This document shows, piece by piece, positions 6,719 to 23,779 of a stretch of 53,742 bases of DNA. The stretch's first letter is position 1. Each line of letters opens with the position of its first letter. The notes under the pieces are model-generated. The model saw only the letters and a list, made by a program, of their open reading frames with translations, had not been told where the DNA came from and did no database searches. The position numbers and the translations under genes were made by a program. The stretch is from a virus (lineage: Duplodnaviria; Caudoviricetes). Location of the stretch: positions 1 through 53,742 of IMG/VR virus record IMGVR_UViG_3300018757_000034, one strand, 5' to 3'.

Positions 6719-6848
6719 GAAAGCGAGAGAAAATCCAGCGGGGCTATTAATGGTAGAGGCAGAAATAAAAGGATACTTAAGGAGAAAAGCAGCAAGCCAC
6801 CACGCTCACTGCTTTCGCCATAAAAACTACTGGACGAATTTATTATAA
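6657..6848 (+). CDS. Hypothetical phage protein
   Basis: RBS GAAAGGA, ATG at 6657. Confidence 0.6.
   Translation: MNFVFTVSGLKKVSDVRVQCRKARENPAGLLMVEAEIKGYLRRKAASHHAHCFRHKNYWTNLL
6784..6835 (-). ncRNA. Candidate antisense sRNA 1 (~50 nt)
   Basis: Minus-strand TTGCCG(6870-6865)-17-TATAAT(6847-6842); ends in AAAGCAG...CTGCTTTT hairpin. Confidence 0.6.
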
Positions 6849-6987
6849 AGCTTTATTTGAAAATCGGCAAGCCAGCTTGTGCTTGTCGTCATGGCTGGGG
6901 ACGTATCTATTCCATTTGTATACCCTCCATGTACCGTTCCTGGCTGTGACGATGCGCGCAAGCATCAGAAAGAAGGTGAAATTATGG

Positions 6988-7179
6988 GTGCCATTTGATT
7001 CTGTAGAGGAATTGGTACATGCCACAAAAGTTGTTGGAGAACTTCGTATGGCCATTTGTGCGGAGAAAACTAGAGCCGAGTTGTTTTCAAATGACCAAAG
7101 CAGCAAAGAGGTTCTTCAAGAAGCGTTAGACCAGATTGCTCTCGATCTTTCAGAAGCGTTAAGCAAACACAAATTGTAA
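6988..7179 (+). CDS. Hypothetical phage protein (start uncertain)
   Basis: 3' part of track ORF 6877..7179; GTG at 6988 after GAAGGTGA. Confidence 0.5.
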   Translation: MPFDSVEELVHATKVVGELRMAICAEKTRAELFSNDQSSKEVLQEALDQIALDLSEALSKHKL

Positions 7180-7191
7180 GGAGGGAGACGA

Positions 7192-7407
7192 ATGGATCAT
7201 CCAATCATCACTCAAATTGAGCGTACGGGCTATCCCGCGTCTGTTCCAAAAGAGGATGAGAAAGTCAGGGATTTCTATGGTGAAGAGGTATCGCTGGCTC
7301 ATGACGATTATGTCTTTGATAAAAATCAAGGCGAAATCATTTTTATCGATAACCTGCCGCGCTACTTAAAAGAGGAGCTTGAATTTGAATTTTATACGGG
7401 CAAATAA
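7192..7407 (+). CDS. YqaI-like protein
   Basis: MDHPIITQIERTGYP N-terminus typical of the family; strong RBS. Confidence 0.75.
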   Translation: MDHPIITQIERTGYPASVPKEDEKVRDFYGEEVSLAHDDYVFDKNQGEIIFIDNLPRYLKEELEFEFYTGK

Positions 7408-7478
7408 AAAAAGCCCACTCTGTACAAGTGGGTGGTGAAAGGGCTGATGAGGGCTCTTTCACAATACACACGATTCAT
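7406..7478 (-). ncRNA. Candidate antisense sRNA 2 (~73 nt)
   Basis: Minus-strand TTGTTT-17-TAAACT with extended TG; internal GTGAAAG...CTTTCAC hairpin; terminator CCCACT...AGTGGG plus U7. Confidence 0.6.
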
Positions 7479-7527
7479 GATGATAGTTTATCAAAATGCC
7501 TCGTGAAAAACAAGGAGGTTTCAATAC

Positions 7528-7704
7528 ATGGCAAAACCATATAGAATTATTAGTTTTAGTTCAGATCGATTTGATCAATGGAGAATCAGTGAGTCTGGCG
7601 GATGTATTTCTTTCAAAGGTAGTACACCGGTATTTGAATTTAAAACCAAAGGACAATACGAGAAATATCTCAAGCTAAATGATCGTAGGGGGATTCAACA
7701 ATGA
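7528..7704 (+). CDS. Small hypothetical protein (58 aa, MAKPYRIISF...), not in the ORF track
   Basis: AAGGAGG RBS; ATGA overlap with the next gene. Confidence 0.75.
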   Translation: MAKPYRIISFSSDRFDQWRISESGGCISFKGSTPVFEFKTKGQYEKYLKLNDRRGIQQ

Positions 7705-8615
7705 ATGGTTTATCGGCTATAAATTATGACGATTACAAGCCTACCGATACTAAAGCACAAAGCGTAACCCAACAAGCTATGATCAGCAGACAAGCTCAAG
7801 AAGTACAGGTCGGCATGTATGTAGCAAAAAACTTCCCCCGGGACACTTATCAGGCTGTTGAGCGGGTTAAAACGGCATGCCAAAGAAGGTTGCTTGCTGA
7901 AAATGCAATTTATGAATATCCTCGCGGAGGCACAAAAGTTTCAGGGCCTTCAATTAGGCTGGCAGAAGCATTAGCCCAATGTTGGGGAAACATCGATTTT
8001 GGAATTATGGAACTCGAGCAAAAGGCTGGCGAATCAACTGTTATGTCTTATGCATGGGATCTCGAAACAAACACCAGACAAACAAAAATTTTCACTGTAA
8101 AACATGAACGGTCAACCAAAAAAGGCATTCAAAAATTAACCGATTCCCGCGATGTTTATGAACATATTGCCAATCAAGGCTCTCGCCGTTTAAGAGCCTG
8201 TATTCTTGGTGTGATTCCAGGTGACATTGTAGATCTAGCAGTTGATATGTGTCAAAAAACTCTTATCAGCGGTCATAAAGAGCCTTTAGAGGACCGCCTA
8301 AGAAATGCACAAACTATGTTTAAACAAGAATTCGGAGTAACCAAAGAAATGCTTGAAGAGTATATTGGTAGCAATTTTGACGCTTTTTCCGAACATGATT
8401 ATTTGAAAATTGGCCGTGTCTACAATTCATTGCGCGATGGCATGGCTAAGAAAGAAGATTATTTCAACATCAAAACCCCTTCTGCAACTAAATCTAAGGC
8501 TGAAGAGGAATTCAAAAAGCAAAAGGAAAAAGAAAAAGCACTAAAAGCGGAGAAGGAGGGTGATCCTGCTGATGGTGACCCTACCGCAGGTGAACAAGGA
8601 GAATTACTATTCTAA
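7701..8615 (+). CDS. Putative ssDNA-annealing recombinase
   Basis: Position next to an exonuclease, size, charged disordered tail ending GELLF; family not firmly recognised. Confidence 0.55.
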   Translation: MNGLSAINYDDYKPTDTKAQSVTQQAMISRQAQEVQVGMYVAKNFPRDTYQAVERVKTACQRRLLAENAIYEYPRGGTKVSGPSIRLAEALAQCWGNIDFGIMELEQKAGESTVMSYAWDLETNTRQTKIFTVKHERSTKKGIQKLTDSRDVYEHIANQGSRRLRACILGVIPGDIVDLAVDMCQKTLISGHKEPLEDRLRNAQTMFKQEFGVTKEMLEEYIGSNFDAFSEHDYLKIGRVYNSLRDGMAKKEDYFNIKTPSATKSKAEEEFKKQKEKEKALKAEKEGDPADGDPTAGEQGELLF

Positions 8616-9378
8616 CGAGATTGATAAGTATTACATGTCAAATTCACAATACAAGAGTTTTTTGCAATGTGAAGCTGCAACTATGGCAAAAATCAATGGA
8701 GAGTGGGAGCCACCAACTTCGGAAGCTCTCCTCTTCGGTCAATATATTCATGCCTGGCTTGAAGGAGAAGCTGCTTTTGACGAATTCAAAAACAACACAC
8801 CCTCTCTCTTTACTAAAAAAGGACATTTATATAAACAATATCAGTTAGCTGATCAGATGATTGAAACAATAAGAAGTGATGAACTCTGTATGTTTGTTCT
8901 TACTGGAGAAAAGGAAGCCATTATTACTGCCGAGCTATTCGGTGTTCATTGGAAAGGAAAGCTAGATGTCTATAACCCTGCAGGTGGACGGTTTGCAGAT
9001 TTAAAAACAACACGTTCATTACGGGAGAAGGTTTGGGATCCTGAGTTAGGATATTGTTCTTTTGTAGAAGCATATGGATATATTGCCCAAATGGCGTTAT
9101 ATGCAGAAATTGAAAAACGCTTTTCCAAAAGAAATGAATGGCTCGAGCCACTCATTGTTGGAGTTTCCAAGGAAAATCCGCCGGACAAAGCCGTCATCAA
9201 CATCGGTGAAAGCCGAATGGAAGTAGAGCTTGAGGATATTGAAAGAAGAATGGATCGTATTCTGCAGGTTAAACACGGTGGGGAAAAACCGAAACGCTGC
9301 GAAAGGTGCCAATATTGCCGCGCCACAAACCAGCTTAACCATATCGTTCATTTTACGGAGTTGATTGGCCAATCATGA
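8572..9378 (+). CDS. PD-(D/E)xK exonuclease (RecE/DUF3799-like)
   Basis: YMSNSQYK, KGKLD...ADLKTT, YxxQxAxY motifs, C-terminal CxxCxxC. Confidence 0.85.
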   Translation: MVTLPQVNKENYYSNEIDKYYMSNSQYKSFLQCEAATMAKINGEWEPPTSEALLFGQYIHAWLEGEAAFDEFKNNTPSLFTKKGHLYKQYQLADQMIETIRSDELCMFVLTGEKEAIITAELFGVHWKGKLDVYNPAGGRFADLKTTRSLREKVWDPELGYCSFVEAYGYIAQMALYAEIEKRFSKRNEWLEPLIVGVSKENPPDKAVINIGESRMEVELEDIERRMDRILQVKHGGEKPKRCERCQYCRATNQLNHIVHFTELIGQS

Positions 9379-9563
9379 AGGAAATTCTGATTCCTTATCC
9401 CTTCTGTTATGTATGGTTGACGGAAGGAATAAAAGAACGAAATGAACGGAAAGCGCTACTTGAAATGTATGTGAGGGATTATATCAAGGCAAATGAAGAG
9501 AATCTGGAATTTATAAAGGTTAAAGGCTTTTCAGCGCTCTGTAAACGGAAAGGAGGAGATTGA
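9375..9563 (+). CDS. Hypothetical phage protein
   Basis: 62-aa ORF translationally coupled to neighbours. Confidence 0.7.
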   Translation: MKEILIPYPFCYVWLTEGIKERNERKALLEMYVRDYIKANEENLEFIKVKGFSALCKRKGGD

Positions 9564-9564
9564 C

Positions 9565-10377
9565 GTGCATGGATGGATTAAGTTGCACCGGAAGATAGTT
9601 GATCATGAAATATGGAGTGATGTAACGACATTTCGGCTGTTCACCTTACTTCTGCTTAAAGCAAGTCATCAGGATGGAATAAAAATTAACGGTATTGAAC
9701 TGAAAAAAGGTCAGTACATAAGATCCTATTCAAAATTATGTGACGACCTTGAATTTAAAGAAGGACGGGCGTTTAAAAAAGTCTCAAAAAGCACCATTTT
9801 ACGTTCTGTGAAAAAACTCGTGAAAAATGGAATGATCACCGTTAGCGAAACGGATAGCGGAACGCTGTTCACCATCGTTAAATATCAATTGTACCAAGGG
9901 TTTAGCCATACAGATGAATCGTTTCACGAAACGGATAATGAACCTTTAACGAAACGACCGCAGAACGATCACGGAACGATCGCGGAACAAAAACAAGAAT
10001 TAAAGAATTTAAGAAGAGAAGAAGAGGAAGAGAACCTCTCAGCATTCCAACAAATCGAAAACAAATTTCTGCAGCGGAAAGGCAGCTTGTTTTTATCGCC
10101 TATGGATTCGCAGTCAATCAACAGACTTCTTAAAGACCAAATTCCTTTGGAGAATATCCTGAAATGGATTGATGAAATATTCGACGAATACAAGCCGAAA
10201 CATCGTGCCGATACCATCAAATCTTTTGCTTACTGTGAAAAAGGCATTCTTGATCGATGGGCCAAGCTTAAGCAACAGCAATCGAATGTCAAAGAGTTCC
10301 CGAATAAGAAAATCAAGAACAGTTTTGATGCTTTGGCCGAATATGCCAGAGAGCGCGGTATTCAGATGGGGGGATAA
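9565..10377 (+). CDS. Phage replication initiator (N-terminal wHTH, DnaD-like C-terminus)
   Basis: GWIKLHRKI start; SFAYCEKGILDRW DnaD-like motif; precedes loader and helicase. Confidence 0.85.
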   Translation: MHGWIKLHRKIVDHEIWSDVTTFRLFTLLLLKASHQDGIKINGIELKKGQYIRSYSKLCDDLEFKEGRAFKKVSKSTILRSVKKLVKNGMITVSETDSGTLFTIVKYQLYQGFSHTDESFHETDNEPLTKRPQNDHGTIAEQKQELKNLRREEEEENLSAFQQIENKFLQRKGSLFLSPMDSQSINRLLKDQIPLENILKWIDEIFDEYKPKHRADTIKSFAYCEKGILDRWAKLKQQQSNVKEFPNKKIKNSFDALAEYARERGIQMGG

Positions 10378-10379
10378 AC

Positions 10380-10661
10380 GTGGAAGTGAACCAGGCAATG
10401 GAGATCCTGCAAAGAATAGCTGCTGCTTATACAAAATTTGATTTAACCGGCGAAGTTGGTAAAAAGCGAATTGAACTCTGGATTGATCATCTTAGCAAAT
10501 TGCCATATGAACCGGTTTTCGCGAAAGTGGACGAGCACATTTTAAATAATCGATTTCCACCATCTATTGCTGAGATTAAAGTCAGACAGCCAGAGAAAAA
10601 CGAATTTTTAGCAAAACAGAAAGAGTGGGAACGCCATGCAAAATATTCTCCAAAACGTTGA
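10380..10661 (+). CDS. Helicase loader/inhibitor (SPP1 G39P-like)
   Basis: W...L...FPPSIAEI motif; between initiator and helicase. Confidence 0.8.
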   Translation: MEVNQAMEILQRIAAAYTKFDLTGEVGKKRIELWIDHLSKLPYEPVFAKVDEHILNNRFPPSIAEIKVRQPEKNEFLAKQKEWERHAKYSPKR

Positions 10662-11940
10662 GGCTGAACAGGCTCTGCTCGGCTGCATTCTCGTAGAAAG
10701 TGACCTGATTAAAGAATTGTCTCTGCAGCCCGAGCATTTTTCTGAAACGAGACATCAAGTCATTTTTAAGGCCATGCGTGAGGTTGAAAAGCTCGGCAAG
10801 TCCGTTGATATGGTCACCACGGTTACAAAATTAGGCGATTCCGTTGAGCAAGTAGGTGGCCTTCAATATTTAACGGACTTAGGTAGTGCAGTGGCCAGCA
10901 CCGCCAATTTCTTGGCCTATCAGACATTGATTTACGAAGCTTATAGATTAAGAGAAATGAAAAAGATTGCGATTGAATTCGCAAATACTCCGACCGACGA
11001 CGGCATCACGGAGCTATATAAACGAGCGATGGAGCTTCAAGAAATCGGCATTGAAAAAACCCGTACGAAACAGGATGTCCTCATGGAGATTTACAATGAC
11101 ATGCACGAGGAGAAGGAGGACATCACGGGCATCAACACTGGATTAATCGATTTGAACGCTATGACAGGCGGCTGGCAGGATGGCGACTTAATTGTGTTAG
11201 CCGCCCGCCCATCTATGGGAAAAACCGCTTTTGCATTAAACATGGGGAAATCAAATTGTGAAAAGGGTGGAGTGACCGACATTTTTTCACTTGAAATGCC
11301 GGACAAGCAATTAACTCATCGTCTACTTAGCAATCTTGGGAACATCGAGGGATCGAAGTGGAAGAACCCCCGAAAGTTCTTTAGCGATCACGATTATGGG
11401 AATGCAACCAAAGCCATTGGAGAATATGAAAGTTGGAATATCAACATTCACGATCAACCTGCTCAAACACTGGCAGATATACGTTCAAAAATTCGAAAGA
11501 CGAAAAAAGAAAATCCGGATAACCAAAAGCATTTGGTCATCATCGACTATCTGCAGCTTATCCGAGCTATAGGAAAGTATGAAAGAAGGGACTTAGAGGT
11601 CGGGAGTATTACTGCAGAATTGAAGGAAATGGCCCGAGCATTCAAGATCCCGATCATTCTTCTTTCTCAATTATCTAGGGCGGTAGAGCAGCGGCAAGAT
11701 AAGCGGCCAATGATGTCCGACTTAAGGGAATCCGGAAGCATTGAACAAGATGCCGATGTCGTCATGTTTCTTTACCGCGATGATTACTACAACAAAAATT
11801 CCGAACTAAAAAACATTATTGAAATTGATCTTGCCAAGCAGCGAAACGGTCCGACCGGCATGATACAAGCAAGCTTTATAAAGGAGTACGGAAGATTCAT
11901 AAACCTTGCCAGGCAGATGGATGCCGGTTTGGTTGGATAA
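10636..11940 (+). CDS. DnaB-family replicative helicase
   Basis: AARPSMGKT Walker A, IIDYLQL, LSQLSR, DLRESGSIEQDAD, KQRNGP. Confidence 0.97.
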   Translation: MQNILQNVEAEQALLGCILVESDLIKELSLQPEHFSETRHQVIFKAMREVEKLGKSVDMVTTVTKLGDSVEQVGGLQYLTDLGSAVASTANFLAYQTLIYEAYRLREMKKIAIEFANTPTDDGITELYKRAMELQEIGIEKTRTKQDVLMEIYNDMHEEKEDITGINTGLIDLNAMTGGWQDGDLIVLAARPSMGKTAFALNMGKSNCEKGGVTDIFSLEMPDKQLTHRLLSNLGNIEGSKWKNPRKFFSDHDYGNATKAIGEYESWNINIHDQPAQTLADIRSKIRKTKKENPDNQKHLVIIDYLQLIRAIGKYERRDLEVGSITAELKEMARAFKIPIILLSQLSRAVEQRQDKRPMMSDLRESGSIEQDADVVMFLYRDDYYNKNSELKNIIEIDLAKQRNGPTGMIQASFIKEYGRFINLARQMDAGLVG

Positions 11941-11956
11941 GAAAGGAGAAATTGTA

Positions 11957-12151
11957 TTGAGTGAAAAATCAACGACAGACACCGGCAGTGAGCGGCAGGA
12001 TTATTTGATTCATGAGCTTATCAGATATGGTCATTATGAATCAGATGATGGCCGTCAGCTCTATGAGTTACCGCTTGTCGAGCTTGAGCGGCTTCACATA
12101 AAAGTGAAATGTAATTTTGGCCATAAAATGTCATGCGAGGCGGGAGATTGA
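11957..12151 (+). CDS. FbpA-like small protein
   Basis: LIHELIRYGHY..DGRQLYELPLVELE motif; TTG after AAGGAG. Confidence 0.7.
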   Translation: MSEKSTTDTGSERQDYLIHELIRYGHYESDDGRQLYELPLVELERLHIKVKCNFGHKMSCEAGD

Positions 12152-12252
12152 TGAGAGTGTTTCAATCATTTCGATGTTTAGCATTTATTATTATTCACGC
12201 CAGAAGAGAAGATTCAAAGATTCATAGCTGGCTATCTGATGACGGGAGGTAG
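12151..12252 (+). CDS. Small hypothetical protein (33 aa)
   Basis: TGATG coupling, RBS GGGAG, fills the intergenic gap. Confidence 0.45.
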   Translation: MRVFQSFRCLAFIIIHARREDSKIHSWLSDDGR

Positions 12253-12258
12253 AGGAAA

Positions 12259-12519
12259 TTGATTGAAGTTGGCGATTGGATTTATATGAGTACACAAGGA
12301 TACCAAGGAAATGCATTTGTTGTGCACAGAGAGCAAGATGTGCTTTTAGTCCAGATCCCTTCTGGCACTTTATCACGAATTTCTATTCATTCTGTAACGA
12401 AACTCGATGAACGACTGAGAGACAAAGATTTTCAAGTGCTCATTGATCTTGCCTTGGATTTGGGAGATAAAAAATGGTTTGACGAGTTGGCAGAGCGACG
12501 CCGGGAGGTCATGAGATAA
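12259..12519 (+). CDS. IDEAL-domain protein
   Basis: C-terminal LIDLALDLGDKKWFDEL. Confidence 0.8.
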   Translation: MIEVGDWIYMSTQGYQGNAFVVHREQDVLLVQIPSGTLSRISIHSVTKLDERLRDKDFQVLIDLALDLGDKKWFDELAERRREVMR

Positions 12520-12659
12520 TGCCGAGGTTTTTCGTTGCAATCGTGCTTCTGAATTGGAACATCGGCTTTGAAATCCATTTAGTCAACGGAATGAGGTTGG
12601 TCAGATTGACCTTTCTTCCACTCACATTATTTATCAGAATAGGAGAGCCACAGAAATGA
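12519..12659 (+). CDS. Small hydrophobic protein (46 aa)
   Basis: TAATG and ATGA coupling on both sides; RBS GGAGG. Confidence 0.55.
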   Translation: MPRFFVAIVLLNWNIGFEIHLVNGMRLVRLTFLPLTLFIRIGEPQK

Positions 12660-13761: not shown

Positions 13762-13841
13762 TCAAACACAATGGTATTTGCTTTTTCGCATAGAGGAAGA
13801 GGATGGACAAGCCGTCCACCTCTATGCACCTATTAGCTAAC

Positions 13842-13887
13842 AAAAAAACCGAAGCGATTGCTCCGGCTATGGTACACAATAATGGGC
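13842..13887 (-). ncRNA. Candidate antisense sRNA 3 (~46 nt) opposite the xtrA leader
   Basis: Minus-strand TTCACT-17-TATGAT with extended TG; terminator CCGGAGC-AATC-GCTTCGG plus U7. Confidence 0.55.
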
Positions 13888-13917
13888 ACTTCAATCATAG
13901 CATAGGGAGCGATGCAA

Positions 13918-14124
13918 GTGAACCGTCCAAGAGAGTTAGACATCAATCAGGATTTTTCAGTTAATAGCAAAATTCAAAGTGGGAAAGTAACTGTCATCGT
14001 TTTAGATGGCGTTAACGGTGTTGCTTACGAAGCAGAGGCGCCGGAACATGGAAAAACGATCATTGAAACAGCGAAGGGTGACTTTGCCCGAGTCGATTAT
14101 CGAATTGGTTACAAGATTAAATAG
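13918..14124 (+). CDS. XtrA/YqaO-family protein
   Basis: GKVTVIVLDG...APEHGKTIIET.KG motif; GTG 8 nt after GGGAG; synteny after RusA. Confidence 0.85.
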   Translation: MNRPRELDINQDFSVNSKIQSGKVTVIVLDGVNGVAYEAEAPEHGKTIIETAKGDFARVDYRIGYKIK

Positions 14125-14237
14125 TGAAAGTGGTTTAGCCGTCCTTATGGCAAATGTGTAACTTAGAAAAAAGGGGGAAGAGTACTTCTGCTGTTTATTT
14201 TTAAGTGAGACTTAATTTACACTTGTATATATATTGG

Positions 14238-16175: not shown

Positions 16176-16559
16176 TTGTTAGCTAAACAATTGGCTTTTC
16201 TACCGCCTATAGACGAAAAAGAAGTCAGAAATACGATGATAAGGGAGCTGAAAAGGTACAAGGCTTTGAAGGTCCAGCTTGAAAACCGGAAAGAACGGGA
16301 AGCAGCTGGGATGAATAACCTTTTCCCCAAGCTCAGAGACCAGAACTCTTTAAATGAATTGAAAGTTTGTCAGATGGACAGGGCGCTTAAACAAAGCCTT
16401 GATGTTGATGAATTAAAGATTATAAAGGCCAAGTATCTCTCTTCCCAAAAAATAAAGGACATTGAGATTTATATGGAGATGGGGTTGAAAAAGGACAAAT
16501 ACTATCAGATCAAACGGCAGGCCATTTATAATCTGGCCACAGCTCTCGGGATAATATAG
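16176..16559 (+). CDS. ArpU-family late transcriptional activator
   Basis: IIKAKYLS...KDIEIYMEMGLKKDKYYQIKRQAIYNLATALG; position at the end of the early region. Confidence 0.9.
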   Translation: MLAKQLAFLPPIDEKEVRNTMIRELKRYKALKVQLENRKEREAAGMNNLFPKLRDQNSLNELKVCQMDRALKQSLDVDELKIIKAKYLSSQKIKDIEIYMEMGLKKDKYYQIKRQAIYNLATALGII

Positions 16560-16577
16560 CGTGGCTTATTTAAAAAA

Positions 16578-16695: not shown

Positions 16696-16764
16696 GTCTT
16701 TTTCAAATGGTGGAATATTGTTAAAATTTACATCATTAGTATAGTTAAGGGAAGGGTGAAAAGG

Positions 16765-17892
16765 TTGGATAGAATCTCATCTGCAGAAGTGGGGATGAAA
16801 ATTACTGAGTGGCACCAGCATATTCAAAAATTCAATGTGACAGACGCCGAAATGCTTAAAGCTGAAATTGAAAGGGATATAGAGGTTATGGAAGAAGATC
16901 AGGATTTACTAATCTATTATCAATTGATGGCTTTCCGCCATAGTATAATGATTGAATATATAGCACCTTCAGGTGAAAAACAGATGGAATTATCAGAATA
17001 TTTAAAGAGGATTGAAGGGAATAAACGAAAATTAGATCACATGCTCACGTATTATTATAATTTTTTTCGAGGGATGTATGAATTTAGGAATGGAGAATAT
17101 ACGAAGGCAATTACTTATTATAAAAGAGCTGAACGTCAATTTCCTGCTATATCAGATTCGATTGAGAAAGCGGAATTTTACTTTAAAATGGCTGAAGTCT
17201 ACTACCATATGAAAATGACCCACGTTTCAATGTATTTTGCAGAGCGAGCATATAACATTTACAAAAAATATGAACTCTATTCTGTTCGCCTTATTCAGTG
17301 TCATTTTGTCATTGCTGGAAATTATGATGATTTAGAGAATCATGAGAAGGCTCTTCCACACCTAAATAAAGCACTTAGAGGCGCAGAACTATTAAAAAAG
17401 AAAAATCTACAGATATACGCTTCTGCTTTTTACAATCTTGGCAACTGCTATCACAAAATGGACAACTTAAACAAGGCTGCAAGATATATTGAACAAGCTC
17501 TAGTTCAATATAAAAAATTAAAATCAAAAAATTTGCCGCAAGCATACCACGACTTGGCGCTAATCAATTTCAAACAAAATAAGTATGATAAAGCCAGGGA
17601 TTATTACCGCAAAGGGCTGAGAAGTGCTGTGGAACTTAAAGATAATCTGTTTATAAGCCTTTTTGAAGCTCTCGAGTCACTTTATATAAAACGTGGTGAA
17701 ACTACATCGCTTTTTAAAATTTTCAATCGATTGGAAACAAGCAAAGGATTTCCGTATTTGGAAGAGCTGGCATTGTTAGCCGGCACCTATCTAGATTATA
17801 ATGGAAAAACAGAGGATAGTCTCATCTGTCTTAAAAAGATGGTCTATGCTCAAAAGCAAATATTGAAGGGGGAATGTTTGTATGAAGTCTAA
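16765..17892 (+). CDS. Rap-family TPR aspartate phosphatase (RapE/RapA-like)
   Basis: SAEVGMKITEW...MEEDQDLLIYYQLMAFRH; TPR repeats; likely TTG start. Confidence 0.95.
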   Translation: MDRISSAEVGMKITEWHQHIQKFNVTDAEMLKAEIERDIEVMEEDQDLLIYYQLMAFRHSIMIEYIAPSGEKQMELSEYLKRIEGNKRKLDHMLTYYYNFFRGMYEFRNGEYTKAITYYKRAERQFPAISDSIEKAEFYFKMAEVYYHMKMTHVSMYFAERAYNIYKKYELYSVRLIQCHFVIAGNYDDLENHEKALPHLNKALRGAELLKKKNLQIYASAFYNLGNCYHKMDNLNKAARYIEQALVQYKKLKSKNLPQAYHDLALINFKQNKYDKARDYYRKGLRSAVELKDNLFISLFEALESLYIKRGETTSLFKIFNRLETSKGFPYLEELALLAGTYLDYNGKTEDSLICLKKMVYAQKQILKGECLYEV

Positions 17893-18019
17893 AATGAAGA
17901 TCGGTTTAGGGATTATGATAATTGGACTTGGTTTTCTCAGTCATTTTTCGAACAACGATGATATGAACACAGCTTCAAGAAACATCACAAGCGCACCCAG
18001 TCATTATTTTGTTGTTTAA
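17882..18019 (+). CDS. Phr propeptide, PhrE-like, predicted mature peptide SRNIT; not in the ORF track
   Basis: MKSKMKIGLGIMIIGLGFLSHFSNNDDMNTASRNITSAPSHYFVV; overlaps the rap stop; PhrE carries internal SRNVT. Confidence 0.9.
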   Translation: MKSKMKIGLGIMIIGLGFLSHFSNNDDMNTASRNITSAPSHYFVV

Positions 18020-18048
18020 CTAAAAAATGAGTTTTTGGATTATCCTTT

Positions 18049-18076
18049 TAGCCGTTTTATTAGCGGCTTTTTTTTA
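18049..18076 (+). terminator. Intrinsic terminator after phr
   Basis: AGCCG...CGGCT plus T-run. Confidence 0.75.
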
Positions 18077-18222
18077 TGTATTTCAAACACTCAACAAATA
18101 GGTTTAATGACCTGATCCCAAGGATTCATTTTCACGGATTGACAGGATTTATTCACCAATTCTTTTCTATAAAGTGGTAAAATATTTCGTGGTATGTCAC
18201 TTTTGTATTAGAGGAGAATGCT

Positions 18223-19887
18223 ATGAAAACTCTTGATGTTCAGGCGTTGCACAAAGCCATTGATCAAACGCTGGAACAATTAAAACATCAATCAGACGAA
18301 TTCGCCAAAGTCAAAAAAGCCGTAGAGGGTATTACATCACTTGATGATGCTTTACAGGGAAAAGGAGGAGACGCAATTCGTGCGTTTTATAAGGAATGTC
18401 ACACCCCTTTTCTACAGTTCTATGATACTTTCATAGAGGAATACAGTTCCACGCTAAAGAAAATGAAAAGCACGTTGAATTCCCTTGAACCAAACCACAA
18501 CGGATTTATATCGCAAACCTTCCTCGAACACGAGCTGGAACAAGGGGTGAATGCAGCCGACCGCACAACGAAGCGTTTGGTATCGAAAACAAATGCCACG
18601 ATCGCAAAAGTCAGCCACATTGTCGATTTGCCCGATTTGAATGACAGCGGTTTTCATGAACAGAATCAGAAAGCCTTAAAGGAAATCAATCAGACAATTG
18701 AAAAGCTACATGCTTTTGACCGCGAACAAACAAGCGCTCTTAAAACTGCTGAACAAGACCTTGAAACGATGCAAAAATACATCACAGAGCTTGAGAAAAT
18801 GTACACAGGCCCAAAAATCGAGATCACAAGCTATAAAAAAGGCTCAATTTTAAAACCGGATGAGAATACAAACATTAACGGTCCGGTCGGCGGTCTAAAA
18901 GGAGCGTTAGAAAATGCTGAGCCTTCTCCGATGGAAATCATGCTAAAAAAATTGTCCGATCAAGAAGCATCTGAAGTCGATTCACTTACCAAAGCAGACC
19001 ATTCTAAAAAGATTGATACAGGTATTCGCATCATCAAAGGCAAAGTATATAATATGAAGGGATACAAAAAGCTCGGTTCTGTCGATGTCACCGATGAAAT
19101 CGGTACAGGCAAGGACTTCGTCGGCGGTTCGTACATGCTTTATTCAAACGGTCAAATTGTCCGAAAATACATATCCGGCGGTGAAGTGAAATACGAACTT
19201 GTCAGTCGCATACCGGAAAGCAGAGTGAAGAAAAGCAACATTGAAAAAGCTCTTGATTGGGCTAAAGACACAGTTGGAGAATTGTCCGGTGGTTATGATG
19301 GTTATAGAGCGATAACAGGTGTTGACCCTGTGACTGGTGAAAAACTATCCGTCACTGACCGTATCCTGTCCGGTGTTTCTGTCATACCCGCTACTAAAGT
19401 AGTCAAGGTAGGAAAATATGTTTTCAAAGCGAATAAAGGTGCGAAGACGGCGAAAAGGGTTTCGACCAGTACTGCTAAAAGGCCAGGGGGATATCTCAAG
19501 GAAGATGTTGATGAACATGGCTATTTAAGCCCAGGGGTTAATCGTGCACCAGGTAACAAAAATATTGCTTCTGATAATCGGGTACAGTCTCACCACCCAA
19601 TACAAAATGAATGGGCGAAAAGATGGGCTAAAGAAGGTGGATTTGATTATAACGAAAAGAAAGCATCCGCAATACTTCTCCCGTCAAGCTCTGGCCTTTC
19701 ACACGCAAAAATCTCTTCGATGCAAAGAAAGCGAAGAAAAATTGAGGGATTTAATACTGACATACGTTATGAATTTAATGTGAGTTATAGGGAAATGATT
19801 GAAGCAGGTGTTGATCAAAAAGCTACCCGAAAAGCAATGAAGGATGCATATAAATATTTCGATGGTTTGGGAGGTTTTGTAAAGTGA
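18223..19887 (+). CDS. LXG polymorphic toxin (T7SS substrate, YqcG-like N-terminus) with putative HNH-type SHH nuclease tip
   Basis: LQGKGG LXG motif; pre-toxin TG segment GYDGYRAITGVDPVTGEKLS; C-terminal QSHHPIQ...H. Confidence 0.9.
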   Translation: MKTLDVQALHKAIDQTLEQLKHQSDEFAKVKKAVEGITSLDDALQGKGGDAIRAFYKECHTPFLQFYDTFIEEYSSTLKKMKSTLNSLEPNHNGFISQTFLEHELEQGVNAADRTTKRLVSKTNATIAKVSHIVDLPDLNDSGFHEQNQKALKEINQTIEKLHAFDREQTSALKTAEQDLETMQKYITELEKMYTGPKIEITSYKKGSILKPDENTNINGPVGGLKGALENAEPSPMEIMLKKLSDQEASEVDSLTKADHSKKIDTGIRIIKGKVYNMKGYKKLGSVDVTDEIGTGKDFVGGSYMLYSNGQIVRKYISGGEVKYELVSRIPESRVKKSNIEKALDWAKDTVGELSGGYDGYRAITGVDPVTGEKLSVTDRILSGVSVIPATKVVKVGKYVFKANKGAKTAKRVSTSTAKRPGGYLKEDVDEHGYLSPGVNRAPGNKNIASDNRVQSHHPIQNEWAKRWAKEGGFDYNEKKASAILLPSSSGLSHAKISSMQRKRRKIEGFNTDIRYEFNVSYREMIEAGVDQKATRKAMKDAYKYFDGLGGFVK

Positions 19888-20540
19888 TTGATTTATCAAT
19901 GGTTTCAGATTTGATAAAAAATATTCCAGCAAGTGAAAGTGAAATTCAAGAGTCAGAAGATATTCTACAAGCTAAATTACCAAATGTATATAAGGATTTA
20001 TTAAGAAATACAAATGGTTTTTCAATTGGTGGTGAGGTGGCTATTTATGGTACAGAAGATATTGTGGAAAGAAACGAGACATGGGAAGTAGATGAATATG
20101 CAAGAGGATATGTCGCTATTGGAGATGATGGCGGAGGTAATGTTTTCTTAATGTTTCAAAATGAAAAGGAAACAGAAGTATTGATTGTTGACTCTGGGGA
20201 TATGGATCCAAGCCATGCTACTGTAATCACTTCAGATTTTATTGAATGGGTGAATAGTGGTTGTATTATAAGGGAATCGGAACAGAAAACAATAAGTGAG
20301 CCACCTGATACATGCAATATAGTGTTAGCAAAGCCCCTTGATGGAGGATTGAAAGATTTAATAAAAATAAAGAATATATTAGGTATTGAGATTTCAACAG
20401 CGGATCTACTAAAGGGTTCAAAAAATCCCCCTTATTTATTAATGGAAAGATTCCCATATGGAAAGGCAAAGAAACTAATTGAAAAATTAGGACCCATTGG
20501 TACGGTGCTGAGATTAGAGCCGATTGTCAAAGATAACTAA
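19884..20540 (+). CDS. SMI1/KNR4-family immunity protein
   Basis: PASESEI..E..L..KLP..YK..L..TNG and IGDDGGGN motifs; coupled to the toxin. Confidence 0.9.
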   Translation: MIDLSMVSDLIKNIPASESEIQESEDILQAKLPNVYKDLLRNTNGFSIGGEVAIYGTEDIVERNETWEVDEYARGYVAIGDDGGGNVFLMFQNEKETEVLIVDSGDMDPSHATVITSDFIEWVNSGCIIRESEQKTISEPPDTCNIVLAKPLDGGLKDLIKIKNILGIEISTADLLKGSKNPPYLLMERFPYGKAKKLIEKLGPIGTVLRLEPIVKDN

Positions 20541-20577
20541 TATTAACGAATTAAAGAGAAATATTGCTGAAATCACC

Positions 20578-20613
20578 AAAACCTTGATTGGCTATTGCCT
20601 TTCAAGGTTTTTT
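20578..20613 (+). terminator. Terminator after the toxin-immunity pair
   Basis: AACCTTGA...TCAAGGTT plus T-run. Confidence 0.7.
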
Positions 20614-20623
20614 ATGTTCCAAT

Positions 20624-20690
20624 CCGAGAAAAATCCGACAAAAAGGGGGATAAAATGGGGGACTTTTTCTATTCCACTTTGTCATACGAT
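20624..20690 (+). promoter_or_regulatory. Putative ArpU-activated late promoter: four 11-bp-period repeats and -10 TACGAT
   Basis: ccgagaaaaat, ccgacaaaaag, ggggataaaat, gggggactttt; no canonical -35. Confidence 0.6.
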
Positions 20691-20720
20691 AGAGACAAGA
20701 AAAACGAACGTGAATATCGA

Positions 20721-20796
20721 GTCCAAGAAGGAGAGCCTGCGGACACTGATCTTTTGCACAAGGATGTTGTGCAGCTGATTGGTGGCCGCTTTTTTA
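20721..20796 (+). terminator. Conserved motif copy 2 overlapping an intrinsic terminator in the late leader
   Basis: GTCCAAGAAGGAGAGCCTGCGGACACT (26/27 identical to copy 1); stem GCGGACACTGATC/GATTGGTGGCCGC plus T6. Confidence 0.75.
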
Positions 20797-21077
20797 TTGG
20801 CCAGAATGGGAGACGCACCTTTCCCTTATCAAGTGTGAACTCGGATGTATCGAATGATGATGAAGGTCGTCAGCTTCACAGGAGGAGCGGCTGGAGTCTA
20901 TGCAGGATTGCGCGCGATAGTCACGGGGAACGCAAGCGGTGAGATCCCGTTTGCAAAGGAAGTCATTTTTATATGGCTCCCTATAATCTTTGCGTCCTCC
21001 TGGAGATTAGCCGGAGCCATTTTTAATTCAAAAAGCGAATAGCGCAAGGTGGTGTTTATTCGATAAGGAGAATGAGT

Positions 21078-21248
21078 ATGGAGTTGAAAGATGTTTTATC
21101 AGCGAACACGAAGCAACAGCTTAAAAAAGCGTTAAGCCCTTCAACGAAGGCAGATGAACCTTTAACGAGGCGAGATTGGGAAGAGATTATGGGAATCAGG
21201 AAAGACACTTACAAACGACTAGGCGGGCGCATTCGCCGAAAACAGTAG
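21078..21248 (+). CDS. Small basic hypothetical phage protein (56 aa), not in the ORF track
   Basis: RBS AAGGAG; MELKDVLS...RRDWEEIMGIRKDTYKRLGGRIRRKQ. Confidence 0.75.
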   Translation: MELKDVLSANTKQQLKKALSPSTKADEPLTRRDWEEIMGIRKDTYKRLGGRIRRKQ

Positions 21249-21315
21249 TAAGAAAGCTTTTCCCGGTAACGAATGCACCTAAATATTAAAAAAACACTTC
21301 CGATATATACAGGGG

Positions 21316-21816
21316 GTGATATTTATGAGAGATAGTAATGAAAAAATTGAGTTTGGTAAAATCAAAACCATAGAAATATATTTGCAACGATTTCAAAAGA
21401 ACCTACATAAAAAAAGCTTAGCTGATCAGATTGCATTTAAAGATGAAATCAAAAAACGTCATGATAAAAAGGAAATTCAAATGTTCCTGGGCAGGCTGGA
21501 AGATCAGATTGAAAATAAAAAAGCTTTAAATCACTTTACTACTGCTTTTTTTGCAATTCTATCTTTTGTTTTGGGAAGTACATTGAATTATGGTCTTAAA
21601 CTTGTGACTGAGGCAGATGCAGATGTTGCTCCTACAATTATCCTTTTGGTTTTTTATGCTGCCGTAGTAATTTGGTTTGTGCTATCAGGTTGGGAATCAA
21701 GGAACCTTAAAAAGCTGAGCCTTTATAAAAGGCTATTACAAGAGTGTTTAGATGAATCACCGGAAAAAAGACATTTTAGAAGAGTACAAAAAAGTACCAG
21801 ACACCTTACTAAATAA
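21316..21816 (+). CDS. Two-TM membrane protein (moron)
   Basis: Two hydrophobic helices; AT-rich; own terminator. Confidence 0.75.
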   Translation: MIFMRDSNEKIEFGKIKTIEIYLQRFQKNLHKKSLADQIAFKDEIKKRHDKKEIQMFLGRLEDQIENKKALNHFTTAFFAILSFVLGSTLNYGLKLVTEADADVAPTIILLVFYAAVVIWFVLSGWESRNLKKLSLYKRLLQECLDESPEKRHFRRVQKSTRHLTK

Positions 21817-21827
21817 GGTGTTTTTTT
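21801..21827 (+). terminator. Intrinsic terminator
   Basis: ACACCTTA-CTAAA-TAAGGTGT plus T-run. Confidence 0.8.
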
Positions 21828-21844
21828 ATTGGAGGCGATACATC

Positions 21845-22366
21845 ATGGATATTAGAACCATACCAGTAGAAAAGATTAACCCTGCCCCATATAATCCGCG
21901 CATTGATCTGCAGCAAGTTGATCCAGAATACGAAGCACTTAAACAGTCTATGACTCGTTTTGGTGCAGTCGAACCATTAGTCTGGAATGAAAGGACTGGC
22001 AACCTTGTAGGCGGCCACCAACGCTTTAAAATCCTCATGGAAGAAAATCCAAAGACACTCCTGGTTTCAGTTGTAAATCTGGATGAGGCTGAGGAAAAAG
22101 CGCTCAACCTGGCTTTAAATAAGATCAGCGGCGACTGGGATGATTACAAACTTGAACAGGTTTTAGAAGACCTGCAACACAATAATTTTGATCTATCCCT
22201 TACAGGCTTTTCAGAAAGTGAAATAGATGAAATCTTGGGAGATCTGGCTGAGCATGAAGGCAACGGAGGAAAAATCAATGACAGCCAGGAATTAGACCTG
22301 GATGATTATGAAGATGATCATTTCCAACATACTTGCCCGAAATGCGGATTTTCATTTAACGAATAG
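21845..22366 (+). CDS. ParB/sulfiredoxin-like protein with C-terminal CPKCG
   Basis: PAPYNPR, LVGGHQR, LNKISGDWD motifs; ATG after GGAGG. Confidence 0.88.
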   Translation: MDIRTIPVEKINPAPYNPRIDLQQVDPEYEALKQSMTRFGAVEPLVWNERTGNLVGGHQRFKILMEENPKTLLVSVVNLDEAEEKALNLALNKISGDWDDYKLEQVLEDLQHNNFDLSLTGFSESEIDEILGDLAEHEGNGGKINDSQELDLDDYEDDHFQHTCPKCGFSFNE

Positions 22367-22374
22367 GTGATTAC

Positions 22375-23403
22375 ATGGAAAAGAAAGAATACCGTTGGAA
22401 GTTGGCCGATTTAAAAAACATCAAGAAAAATGGCCTTAAAGTATTCAGTACATTCTCTTGCGGCGGAGGTTCCTCTATGGGCTATAAGCTCGCCGGCTAC
22501 GATCTTTTGGGGAACTGTGAGATCGATCCGCAAATGATGAAGATTTACAGGAAGAATCATAACCCGAAATATCCTTTTCTTATGGACATCAGAGACTTTA
22601 ACAAAATGGAAAATCTGCCTGATGAATTGTTCGATTTAGATATTTTTGATGGTTCCCCGCCCTGCAGCGTGTTTTCTATTGCGGGGGATCGGGAAAAGGC
22701 TTGGGGAAAAGAAAAAGCCTTTCGTGAAGGACAGGCCAAACAGTCACTTGATGATCTATTTTTTCATTACCTTGATGCTGTTGAAAGGCTGAGGCCCAAA
22801 ATCTTTGTGGCCGAGAATGTAAAAGGTATGGTGAGCGGAAACGCTAAAGGATATGTAAAGCTCGTAATTGAACGGGCAAAAGAAATAGGATACGATGTTC
22901 AGCTGTTCTTGCTGAATGCTGCCACAATGGGAGTCCCGCAACGTAGAGAGCGGGTCTTTTTTATTGGCCGAAGGAAGGACTTGAATTTACTGCCACTTAA
23001 ATTGTCCTTCAATGAGCCACCGATTGTATATAAAGAATTCAGAAGCGGCCATGGTGCAAGGCTTAAAGAAACATCAAAGCTTTATAAAAGATGGGTGAAG
23101 CGACGGCCGCCGGATAATAATGTGGGAGACATCACGAAAAGGATTGAAGGGAAAGAATCTAATTTCAATACGATTTTAGTGAAAAATAGCCTTGTCCCGC
23201 CTACTCTCGCAAGTGGTTCGGTCTTTGTCCGTTATGATGAGCCCTACTATATCTCTGAACGAGATATCATTTTGATGCAATCTTTCCCACTGGATTATGA
23301 TTTTATGGACGCATCTGTTCAATATGTTTGTGGGATGAGTGTTCCTCCGGTCATGATGAAAAAAATATCGGAACAGATTTACAAACAGTGGTTTGAAAAA
23401 TAA
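22375..23403 (+). CDS. Orphan DNA (cytosine-5) methyltransferase
   Basis: Motif I FSCGGG, IV GSPPC, VI ENV, VIII QRRERVF, X GMSVPP. Confidence 0.95.
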   Translation: MEKKEYRWKLADLKNIKKNGLKVFSTFSCGGGSSMGYKLAGYDLLGNCEIDPQMMKIYRKNHNPKYPFLMDIRDFNKMENLPDELFDLDIFDGSPPCSVFSIAGDREKAWGKEKAFREGQAKQSLDDLFFHYLDAVERLRPKIFVAENVKGMVSGNAKGYVKLVIERAKEIGYDVQLFLLNAATMGVPQRRERVFFIGRRKDLNLLPLKLSFNEPPIVYKEFRSGHGARLKETSKLYKRWVKRRPPDNNVGDITKRIEGKESNFNTILVKNSLVPPTLASGSVFVRYDEPYYISERDIILMQSFPLDYDFMDASVQYVCGMSVPPVMMKKISEQIYKQWFEK

Positions 23404-23502
23404 AAAAGAGGGTGCTGACAACACCCTCCCTCAACCAAGGCCATCAGCCTGGTAAGAGCGTGATAAAGACGCGGCCGCGTTTCGTGGGAAAATCACGCTC
23501 TC
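23402..23502 (-). ncRNA. Candidate antisense sRNA 4 (~100 nt)
   Basis: Minus-strand TTGCCA(23537-23532)-17-TAGAAT(23514-23509); 10-bp stem AGAGCGTGAT/ATCACGCTCT; terminator GAGGGTG...CACCCTC plus U6. Confidence 0.65.
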
Positions 23503-23530
23503 ATCTCTATTCTATTGGAGGACCAGGCAA

Positions 23531-23779
23531 ATGGCAACAGAAAATACAAACATACGTTCTTACGACGATGAAGAAAAAGAAGAACTGCTTCTCCTTCATA
23601 GTGCTGAATTACTTGAAAACATCAGTCAATCTAAAGAGAAATACCGGAAAATTATTCAGGCGGGTATCACCCAATGGGTCAAAGATTTTCAAAGCGGCCA
23701 TATTAAGGTGAACACTGTTGAAGATTTAAAAAAGCTCATCGAGCTCGATATACAGCTTCAGAAAGATGAAGAAATTTAA
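23531..23779 (+). CDS. Hypothetical phage protein
   Basis: RBS GGAGG, 82 aa. Confidence 0.75.
   Translation: MATENTNIRSYDDEEKEELLLLHSAELLENISQSKEKYRKIIQAGITQWVKDFQSGHIKVNTVEDLKKLIELDIQLQKDEEI

Follow-up and report, generated by a model that had tools for sequence, protein, structure and literature searches.

Four conserved minus-strand promoter-terminator units, putative small-RNA genes, in the lytic operon of a skin-like Bacillus prophage

Four units in the gaps of the lytic operon

Reading the minus strand of a skin-like Bacillus prophage directly, over a stretch of 53,742 nt (the window), reveals four promoter-terminator units. These are supported as self-contained minus-strand small-RNA genes, beyond chance hexamers, because promoters, hairpins and position are conserved across related prophages, and because compensatory changes and G.U pairs fit a minus-sense RNA only. 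The plus-strand lytic operon has few intergenic gaps, and each unit fills one of them, immediately ahead of a small plus-strand gene. All four hexamer pairs of the preliminary description, with their 17-nt spacers, lie at the coordinates it gave (6842..6870, 7485..7513, 13894..13922 and 23509..23537 for units 1 to 4), and the hairpin and U-run that it placed 45-100 nt after each promoter are found 45-105 nt downstream, the U-run of unit 1 being weak in the window. The predicted RNAs of units 1, 2, 3 and 4 measure ~58, 75, 46 and 105 nt, respectively, and we agree with the earlier view that they contain no open reading frame of noteworthy length led by a Shine-Dalgarno (SD) sequence. Three promoters had been described as overlapping the ribosome-binding site or start of the next gene, which applies to units 2, 3 and 4 (genes at 7528, 13912 and 23531) and not to unit 1.

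By their hexamers the promoters are of sigma-A type, with an extended -10 element in two or three of the four. In a consensus promoter scan units 1, 3 and 4 score 10, 9 and 10 matches out of 12, while the unit 2 hexamer pair, with 7/12 matches plus a TG, is below the reach of such a scan. Rows 1, 2 and 7 of the terminator scan, at 23432-23404, 13868-13847 and 7432-7414, are minus-strand sites directly 3' of units 4, 3 and 2. The RNAs themselves would cover leader or intergenic sequence only, leaving all SD sequences and start codons free, since their predicted ends stop 20-50 nt before the SD of the downstream gene and contact the upstream gene at its stop codon at most.

Comparison with chance and with Rfam

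It might be argued that the units are chance promoter-like hexamers beside terminators that simply end stray antisense transcription, as promoter-like sites are abundant here (58 seen against 47 expected) and the unit 2 hexamers have a mere 7/12 matches. We regard this explanation as extremely improbable. A strict scan of positions 5000-50500 for a promoter followed by a terminator (stems of 7 or more pairs, 4 or more of them GC) finds three units on the minus strand and none on the plus strand, against a mean of 0.35 (sd 0.53, maximum 2) in 40 dinucleotide shuffles; loose criteria give a weak excess, 6 units versus 2.65 in the shuffles (sd 1.6). Moreover, variation of the -10 element across relatives is confined to positions 3-5 (18 distinct unit 4 upstream regions), in units 2 and 3 the extended -10 is retained through three sequence versions, and published cDNA peaks, as far as they are reported, begin directly past the homologous -10 elements. 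The preliminary description had made conservation of the hexamers in related prophages decisive, and all four units do recur there, with hexamers and hairpins retained while the flanking genes drift.

A scan of the whole window with Rfam 15 at gathering thresholds returned BsrG at 35718-35970 as the sole match. Unit 3 was compared with Rfam by this gathering scan alone, whereas E-value scans of units 1, 2 and 4 gave at most 21.5 bits versus thresholds of 33-111. For units 1 and 4 neither a matching Rfam family nor a counterpart in the B. subtilis 168 skin was found.

Units 1 and 4

From its promoter (TTGCCG-17-TATAAT; 6842..6870, minus strand), unit 1 is predicted to specify an RNA of ~58 nt (6778..6835) ending in a terminator hairpin at 6787-6814, which comprises 11 bp with two G.U pairs and precedes a U-run, weak in the window (TTTTCTCC) but stronger in relatives, which have TTTTTT. 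Both promoter and hairpin persist in 10/10 and 11/11 relatives of two sets; the -10 element is invariant in all ten sequences of set A2, nine of which retain the -35 (TTGTCG once), and it reads TATAAT in ten and TACAAT in one of 11 genus loci, all with the promoter retained. The hairpin is near-invariant between species and shows one compensatory C-G to U-A change, its two G.U pairs form on the minus sense only, and folding favors the minus sense over its reverse complement in 12/12 sequences. The 5' part of the RNA differs between relatives, in which the promoter spacer contains a palindrome, a possible operator, which bears on the proposed independence from a repressor. The small plus-strand open reading frame after unit 1 (6988..7179) gave no match in the PHROG search, and its start is uncertain, a GTG at 6988 lying behind AAGGTGA. 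Between the two lies a plus-strand leader hairpin of ~30 bp (6871..6966) with folding energies of -38 to -47 kcal/mol, which occurs in three sequence versions and is stabler on the plus strand in 11/12 sequences; it accompanies unit 1 and is separate from the antisense RNA.

Unit 4 is located just upstream of the packaging genes, its promoter (TTGCCA-17-TAGAAT; 23509..23537, minus strand) covering the SD and start codon of an 82-aa gene (23531..23779, plus strand; phrog_1476), the first of the packaging block. The ~105-nt RNA (23398..23502, minus strand) is predicted to form three hairpins, namely SL1 (23455-23502), which consists of an outer stem and the palindrome ACGCGGCCGCGT, SL2 (23435-23452) and the terminator (23406-23432). 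This unit is present in 20/20 related viral loci and reaches 75 bits or more in 16 of the 49 species genomes of the genus. Among 18 distinct upstream regions, the promoter has at least 9/12 matches and a -10 of the form TAnnnT in every case, and the 17-nt spacer in 17. The covariation analysis proposed at the outset bears the structure out: 99.7% of cells pair, compensatory changes occur in 10 of 23 pairs, and 0 of 500 shuffles came up to this. In addition, the minus-sense fold is stabler than its reverse complement in all 28 variants. In the most distant species, conservation of SL1 and of the terminator hairpins of units 1 and 4 is 0.83-1.00 versus ~0.5 at neighbouring third codon positions, and these hairpins are near-invariant across species while the genes flanking units 1 and 4 drop to 57-63% protein identity.

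Such conservation might also be expected of a DNA site, and the inverted repeat with ACGCGGCCGCGT could serve pac/terminase, a ParB-like protein or a late activator, the RNA being secondary. SL1 is indeed invariant in sequence, the repeat stands immediately ahead of the 82-aa gene and TerS, and the same phage has an ArpU/RinA-like activator gene (16176-16559); activators of this kind are described as binding upstream of terS (Quiles-Puchalt 2013). Furthermore, some relatives have a plus-strand terminator just upstream of the unit 4 stretch, so that a late promoter must sit within it. The sites reported for ArpU-type activators, however, are three direct 7-nt repeats and not inverted repeats (Quiles-Puchalt 2013). 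Nor would a DNA site account for SL2, in which at least five sequence changes leave the hairpin preserved with G.U pairs valid on the minus sense only (28/28), for the G.U pairs that one locus (L019) uses in the SL1 stem too, or for the retention of both promoter and terminator. On balance we consider a primary DNA-site role unlikely, although the two roles could coexist.

Units 2 and 3 and the skin element of B. subtilis 168

The remaining two units have relatives among published RNAs. Unit 2 has the promoter TTGTTT-17-(TGn)TAAACT (7485..7513, minus strand; TG at -15/-14), the -35 of which adjoins the SD of a 58-aa gene (7528..7704, plus strand; phrog_12451), and a predicted RNA of ~75 nt (7404..7478) with an internal hairpin (7435-7462) and a terminator (7414-7432). 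The 3' end of this RNA reaches the stop codon of the preceding gene (7192-7407), which encodes a 71-aa YqaI homologue (56% identity over 45 aa, E 8e-13). Nine of 14 loci retain unit 2; its promoter is identical in L021-L029, save one spacer base in L028, and L034, L153 and L156 have a unit of different sequence in its place.

In Table 2 of Irnov 2010 (PMC2965217), ncr1160, an sRNA candidate of the skin element, is given as 70 nt with 920 reads, opposite yqaI/yqaJ, and thus shares with unit 2 its strand, intergenic site and yqaI-like neighbour. Both lie opposite lytic genes and immediately after yqaI, on the stop codon of which the terminator ends in the window and likewise in genome G041, where the homologous promoter is TTGTTT-17-(TGn)TAAAAT. 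The two align at their ends, in a promoter block (TTGTTTTT..GAGGC..TGATAAAnT) and in the terminator (CCACTT..AGTGGGCTTTTTT), whereas the middle does not align; blastn matches of 25 nt (88% identity) and 39 nt (77%) have weak E values of 0.011 and 0.037. Judged by these shared ends and by position, unit 2 is a homologue of ncr1160, the bodies of the RNAs having diverged so that only the ends are common, and the window differs from the 168 skin in the additional 58-aa gene after the unit.

The promoter of unit 3 (TTCACT-17-(TGn)TATGAT; 13894..13922, minus strand) covers the SD and start codon of a 70-aa XtrA/YqaO-like gene (13912..14124, plus strand). Its predicted RNA of ~46 nt (13842..13887, minus strand) is made up of ~19 nt of single strand and a terminator (13847-13868); the 5' part varies among relatives, and 26 of 32 examined loci retain the extended -10 (TGnTAnnAT). 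A second skin sRNA candidate, ncr1159, is listed at 50 nt with 352 reads opposite yqaN/yqaO (Irnov 2010, PMC2965217, Table 2) and has in common with unit 3 the strand, the intergenic site and the yqaO-like neighbour. The A1 profile of the 70-aa gene matches G041 at 2692651-2692851 (E 4.2e-26), which puts the published ncr1159 peak (2692882-2692931) 31-80 nt upstream of the yqaO-like gene; unit 3 sits 25-70 nt upstream of 13912, also on the opposite strand. By blastn, 46 nt match at 76% identity (E 1.7e-4) and 18 nt at 89%, and the common blocks are CCCTATGyTATGAT and GCTTCGGT, the second one leading into a T-run. By the same reasoning unit 3 is a homologue of ncr1159, the window having an additional 225-aa gene before it relative to the 168 skin.

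According to Irnov 2010 (PMC2965217), ncr1160 and ncr1159 are the two most-sequenced sRNA candidates in B. subtilis 168. In G041 the published cDNA peaks coincide exactly with the unit 2 and unit 3 homologues, starting a few nt past the predicted -10 and ending within the T-run. Sequence and position together make ncr1160 and ncr1159 the same kind of unit as 2 and 3, and leave units 1 and 4 as new. The claim that no such RNAs had been described in skin-like elements was therefore only partly right: it stands for units 1 and 4 and fails for units 2 and 3. In the literature that we searched, ncr1160 and ncr1159 are neither treated as a set nor assigned a function.

Relation to known antisense RNAs

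With a promoter and a terminator of their own, set opposite to the operon, the four units resemble regulators of the OOP/sar type, whereas the overlap with coding sequence or SD that also marks this type is absent from all four. The OOP RNA of phage lambda, also short and antisense, is transcribed from its own promoter to its own terminator and overlaps cII at the 3' end of the coding region. It is likewise set against a phage operon; the RNAs discussed here, however, overlap leaders only, are four in number, belong to a Gram-positive myophage and show no homology to OOP. P22 sar and sas, P1 c4 and P4 CI are phage-encoded antisense or immunity RNAs that cover an SD or act through processed seed regions on defined targets and lie within single immunity loci, in contrast to four dispersed loci without SD overlap. 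STnc6030 of the Salmonella prophage BTP1 is also an antisense RNA within lytic genes, but it is reported as ~786 nt long and antisense to late-gene coding sequence (Owen 2020, PMC7067206), compared with 46-105 nt and intergenic sites here, and the two are not homologous. Among the type I antitoxin RNAs of Bacillus prophages, RatA, SR4 and as-bsrH are described as overlapping the 3' ends of small hydrophobic toxin mRNAs (Irnov 2010, PMC2965217; Durand 2012). These, too, are constitutive small antisense RNAs of the same elements with RNase III as the likely effector, but they are paired with a hydrophobic toxin ORF and none lies beside the four units.

Possible functions

The reading that we favor, to which we give somewhat less than an even chance, is that the units act in cis as a constitutive brake on lytic transcripts, through antisense pairing and convergent promoters, and possibly also against incoming relatives. 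The RNAs would be made constitutively in the lysogen, expression having been seen for the unit 2 and 3 homologues in another genome, and each would be perfectly complementary to a stretch of leader or intergenic sequence within the polycistronic lytic mRNA. Because no SD or start codon is covered, a simple translation block is not available; the duplex may instead be cut by RNase III or uncouple the small downstream gene. In addition, polymerase bound at, or firing from, a promoter placed over the next SD and start might collide head-on with lytic polymerase. Leaky early and late expression would thus be braked until induction overruns the brake, which would also strike related phages entering the lysogen. 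In favor of such a brake are the promoter-RNA-terminator architecture at all four sites, above shuffles, and the toxicity of early skin genes upon derepression described in Durand 2012. Against it, sequence conservation in the hairpins (unit 4 SL1, unit 1 and 4 terminators) exceeds what pure cis-antisense needs. Moreover, the early operon of the 168 skin is reportedly under tight repression, so that scant target RNA is expected in the lysogen, and yet the RNAs are highly abundant.

A more speculative and rather doubtful extension is that the four RNAs form one coordinated, repressor-independent layer, conserved across skin-like prophages of the B. subtilis group, that silences early and late expression of relatives as well as the prophage's own leaky toxic early genes. 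Here the invariant hairpins (unit 1 terminator, unit 4 SL1 and unit 4 terminator) would pair with leader segments that each relative must retain for its own reasons, namely an early-leader processing hairpin and the leader of the late operon, with its packaging or activator site, so that a resident prophage would silence any incoming relative, whatever its repressor type. The prophage's own toxic early genes would stay suppressed until induction sweeps the antisense promoters. If this were true, unit 4 would represent a new structured RNA family gating the switch to packaging, and two known but unexplained skin sRNAs, together with two new units, would become a testable RNA layer of prophage control.

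Superinfection exclusion in trans, in which the RNAs mainly pair with identical leaders of incoming relatives of any repressor type, we likewise hold to be doubtful. Near-invariance of the unit 1 and 4 hairpins across species, beside flanking genes at 57-63% identity, means that one resident RNA would match most relatives; the RNAs are abundant in the 168 lysogen although their own targets are repressed; and there is a precedent in STnc6030, which is reported to be highly expressed in the lysogen and proposed to act against the same or related superinfecting phages (Owen 2020, PMC7067206). Invariance of the targets may have other causes, however, and relatives differ from one another in the body of unit 2 and in the 5' portions of units 1 and 3.

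Action in trans on host mRNAs or proteins, that is, lysogenic conversion with an incidental antisense position, appears less probable still. Irnov 2010 (PMC2965217) raises host targets as a possibility and reports ncr1160 and ncr1159 to be abundant in stationary phase, and conservation of the hairpins at the sequence level would agree with this role. It leaves unexplained, however, why all four units occupy equivalent sites before small lytic genes, and a scan of 102 translation-initiation regions, all of the phage, found no pairing above shuffled controls except the cis overlaps.

Finally, short constitutive antisense RNAs next to small ORFs recall type I antitoxins, the adjacent plus-strand genes being the toxins, and true type I pairs do occur in the same elements: the BsrG-like locus at 35718-35970 in the window, and txpA/ratA and bsrH in skin (Irnov 2010, PMC2965217). 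We nevertheless consider this highly unlikely, as none of the four RNAs lies opposite a small hydrophobic toxin's mRNA or reaches into the SD or coding region of the adjacent ORF. The adjacent proteins (58-82 aa) have 29-35% charged residues and no hydrophobic stretch, with maximum 19-residue Kyte-Doolittle means of 0.05-0.91.

Anatomy of the antisense units

The four minus-strand units, each made up of a promoter, a small RNA and a terminator, are a real and conserved feature of this prophage; half of the set has been published before in the form of expression peaks, and the other half is new. They lie at positions 6778-6870 (unit 1), 7404-7513 (unit 2), 13842-13922 (unit 3) and 23398-23537 (unit 4), and all four hexamer pairs with 17-nt spacers were found where the preliminary description had placed them. 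A consensus promoter scan gives 9-10 of 12 matches for units 1, 3 and 4, and the unit 2 pair has 7/12 matches together with a TG. The hairpin and U-run claimed behind each promoter are likewise present in all four, with an 11-bp hairpin and a poorer U-run in unit 1; minus-strand sites directly behind units 4, 3 and 2 form rows 1, 2 and 7 of a terminator scan of the 20-kb region. When a promoter had to be followed by a terminator within 15-130 nt, scanning region 5000-50500 on both strands gave three minus-strand units and no plus-strand ones, against 0.35 ± 0.53 units (maximum 2) on 40 shuffles. The predicted RNAs are 58, 75, 46 and 105 nt long for units 1-4. No SD-led reading frame is found in any of them, as the preliminary description also held, and the sole ATG of unit 2 is missing from seven of nine close relatives. 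Every unit occupies one of the rare intergenic gaps, upstream of a small plus-strand gene (63, 58, 70 and 82 aa for units 1-4), and the overlap of three promoters with the ribosome-binding site or start of the next lytic gene holds for units 2-4 (SD or start codon).

The surrounding virus record (53.7 kb, G+C 40%) carries minus-strand genes for a large serine recombinase, an ImmA-like protease and an Xre repressor at its left end. The long plus-strand block runs from Cro-like and YqaG-like regulators and YqaH-/YqaI-like small genes, through a replication part (DUF3799 nuclease, DnaD-like loader, DnaB, RusA), to an XtrA/YqaO-like gene, an ArpU/RinA-like activator and a toxin moron, and then to a ParB-like protein, a C5 methylase, the 82-aa gene, TerS and TerL; a contractile tail of the PBSX/skin type and then lysis genes occupy the right part. 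This gene content and the origin of the named relatives (B. haynesii, B. sonorensis, B. glycinifermentans, B. swezeyi and B. paralicheniformis) therefore place the record among the skin-like prophages of the B. subtilis/licheniformis group. In the phage record collection, neither the 20-kb region nor units 1-2 found a match, and a unit 4 query returned one unannotated record with the match confined to the 82-aa gene.

Additional hairpins adjoin two of the units. A plus-strand leader hairpin of about 30 bp (6871-6966, -44.8 kcal/mol) precedes the small gene after unit 1 and ends a few bases upstream of its SD. Twelve sequences retain it, in three versions; mismatched positions become G.U when read on the plus strand, and in 11/12 the plus-strand fold is the more stable one. 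The element resembles a processing site of the RNase III type or a 5' stabiliser. Between a 225-aa gene and the unit 3 terminator, a conserved hairpin at 13775-13830 (GCATAGAGG..CCTCTATGC plus an inner stem) is also present in loci L035, L036, L038, L042 and L074 of related viruses and prophages.

Units 2 and 3 and published skin sRNAs

Irnov et al. (2010; PMC2965217) sequenced stationary-phase RNA of B. subtilis 168, and the most-read candidates of their Table 2 are ncr1160 (70 nt, 2697037-2697106, 920 reads, opposite strand in the yqaJ/yqaI gap) and ncr1159 (50 nt, 2692882-2692931, 352 reads, opposite strand in the yqaO/yqaN gap). We read these coordinates directly on the genome of the genus that carries both loci (G041), where the yqaO-like gene occupies 2692651-2692851. 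The two loci match units 2 and 3, respectively, in build and have promoter and terminator blocks in common with them; the peaks start a few bases past the -10 and finish in the T-run. Synteny agrees, with YqaI and YqaO homologues as neighbours, so that units 2 and 3 belong to sRNA loci that are known yet uncharacterised. A full-text literature search found no later study of ncr1160 or ncr1159, nor any function.

The unit 3 motif (extended -10, hairpin and T-run) is present in 26 of 32 loci, the exceptions being a near miss (L038) and five loci without any gap, and its hairpin exists in three sequence versions. PBSX-type xtrA is mostly without unit 3 (27 of the best 30 xtrA-like loci of the genus). 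The PBSX copy in G041 has no unit upstream of xtrA, in agreement with the parts of Irnov et al. (2010; PMC2965217) cited here, which give no such candidates for PBSX. Unit 2 is near-identical in 9/14 viral loci and absent from four, and a different sequence of the same build takes its place in L034. In two skin-like prophages of other species, L153 (17245-17334) and L156 (19523-19608), there is a promoter and terminator unit of unrelated sequence, TTGATT-16-TATAAT with a TG, then GGTTCACTTGTGGGAGTGAACC and T's; the L153 copy occupies the unit 2 position, roughly 0.6 kb away from unit 1.

Conservation of units 1 and 4

The promoter hexamers of units 1 and 4 are conserved in related prophages. 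In unit 1, all ten aligned relatives keep the -10 TATAAT and the hairpin, the -35 is TTGCCG in nine and TTGTCG in one, and the 5' part of the RNA occurs in two versions. By blastn the region is present in 14/49 genomes of the genus, sharing the prophage with unit 4 at a distance of 16-20 kb. The promoter and hairpin are kept in all 11 genus loci shown, with one compensatory change from C-G to U-A, and folding stability favours the minus sense over the reverse complement in 12/12. In L142 and L144-L150, a palindrome, GCTC(N6)GAGC, sits inside the 17-nt spacer of the unit 1 promoter; it is absent from that spacer in the window itself. In these prophages of other species it may be an operator, in which case the unit 1 promoter there would be regulated rather than constitutive.

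Unit 4 is found upstream of the 82-aa gene (23531-23779, plus strand) in 20/20 viral loci, and in L014 the last hairpin is absent and the T-run directly follows the second. A covariance model of the unit reaches 75 bits or more at 18 places, distributed over 16 of the 49 species genomes searched within the genus, and also picks up one truncated copy (52 bits); elsewhere in the family, no score exceeds 34 bits across 42 genomes. All 18 distinct upstream regions contain a promoter with at least 9/12 matches, with a 17-nt spacer in 17. Variation in the -10 is confined to positions 3-5 (TACAAT 12, TAGAAT 3, and TAAAAT, TATCAT and TATTAT 1 each).

Across 28 distinct unit 4 sequences 99.7% of cells pair, and covariation is seen as both-side changes in 10 of 23 pairs (as high in 0/500 shuffles), mostly from two divergent sequences and in an alignment fitted to the model. 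The middle hairpin, SL2, has at least five sequence versions, all folding, with 1-3 G.U pairs that correspond to A.C on the opposite strand. Because the minus-sense fold is favoured over the reverse complement in 28/28 sequences, both for the whole unit (by a mean of 9.9 kcal/mol) and for SL2 by itself, the constraint acts on the minus-strand RNA. The first hairpin, SL1, and the terminator hairpin retain 83-100% identity in diverged species where identity falls to 57-67% for the 82-aa protein and to about 50% at third codon positions.

Relatives differ in the DNA past the unit 4 terminator, which consists of the end of the methylase gene, other genes or a plus-strand terminator (L011, L013, L016, L020 and others versus L006, L008, L009, L108 and L110). 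The conserved packaging module therefore has the unit 4 RNA at its left boundary. The 5' arm of this terminator (23404-23432), GGGAGGGTG, is SD-like and its 3' arm anti-SD-like. Its complement in the plus-strand mRNA, CACCCTCCC, has the potential to base-pair with the 82-aa gene's SD (23514-23520), an interaction that appeared in the RNAalifold structure once the promoter region was added to the input.

The skin element of G041 has no counterpart of units 1 and 4, and Rfam has no family for any of the four units. The preliminary claim that no such set had been described in skin/PBSX-like phages consequently stands for units 1 and 4 and falls for units 2 and 3, which were published as the ncr1160 and ncr1159 peaks. 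Judged by promoter, structure and covariation, units 1 and 4 are well-supported candidates for new RNA families.

Possible modes of action

Anatomy, conservation and, for two homologues, expression in a lysogen are established, and it is from these that we infer a mechanism. Each of the four RNAs has full complementarity to a leader segment of the polycistronic lytic transcript, and the antisense promoters oppose the oncoming lytic polymerase on top of the start of the next gene. They cannot simply mask ribosome binding, since none reaches an SD. The most economical reading combines two effects: pairing with the leader segment would give a duplex open to cleavage, and the convergent promoters would interfere with lytic transcription, the net effect being less leaky expression of the early genes and the packaging block. 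Some early skin genes are toxic according to Durand (2012). The RNAs are unlikely to be type I antitoxins, given that the proteins encoded next to them are hydrophilic.

That the hairpins of units 1 and 4 are invariant in sequence calls for more than duplex cleavage and promoter interference. Action on incoming relatives, as reported for STnc6030 in Salmonella (Owen et al. 2020; PMC7067206), is one possible answer by analogy, and a protein partner for the invariant hairpins is another. When 102 phage translation-initiation regions were examined as trans targets, the best energies, cis overlaps excepted, were no better than those of shuffled RNAs. It is also possible that SL1 coincides with a DNA site for packaging or late activation. 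Some relatives have a plus-strand terminator just upstream of the unit 4 stretch, so a late promoter must sit within it; inspection by eye revealed no plus-strand sigma-A promoter there, and ArpU-type activators use direct rather than inverted repeats in the account of Quiles-Puchalt (2013).

The two most abundant sRNA candidates of B. subtilis 168 in 2010, left without function or follow-up in the literature found, belong to a conserved set of antisense RNA genes, as many as four, that occupy fixed positions in skin-like prophages. The recurrence of this set leads to the testable hypothesis that toxic lytic genes are kept silent, or relatives excluded, without a protein repressor. Genetic manipulation is possible in B. 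subtilis and in strains of the B. licheniformis group, which makes the set experimentally tractable.

Other features of the prophage

Contigs from 4 of 19 public RNA runs derive from related phages, most at 90-99% identity, as assemblies without strand, ends or levels. The moron is an LXG/PT-TG/Tox-SHH polymorphic toxin gene (18223-20540, plus strand) followed by an overlapping 218-aa ORF, with the ArpU-like activator gene on one side and the ParB-like and methylase genes on the other. A minus-strand BsrG-like RNA (35718-35970; Rfam RF01412, 156.9 bits versus a gathering score of 55) is located in the interval separating the tail tube gene (35042-35485) from the tail gene that follows. Skin of strain 168 carries txpA/ratA and bsrH at the matching position (Irnov et al. 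2010; PMC2965217), and the BsrG-like locus is probably a type I toxin-antitoxin pair.
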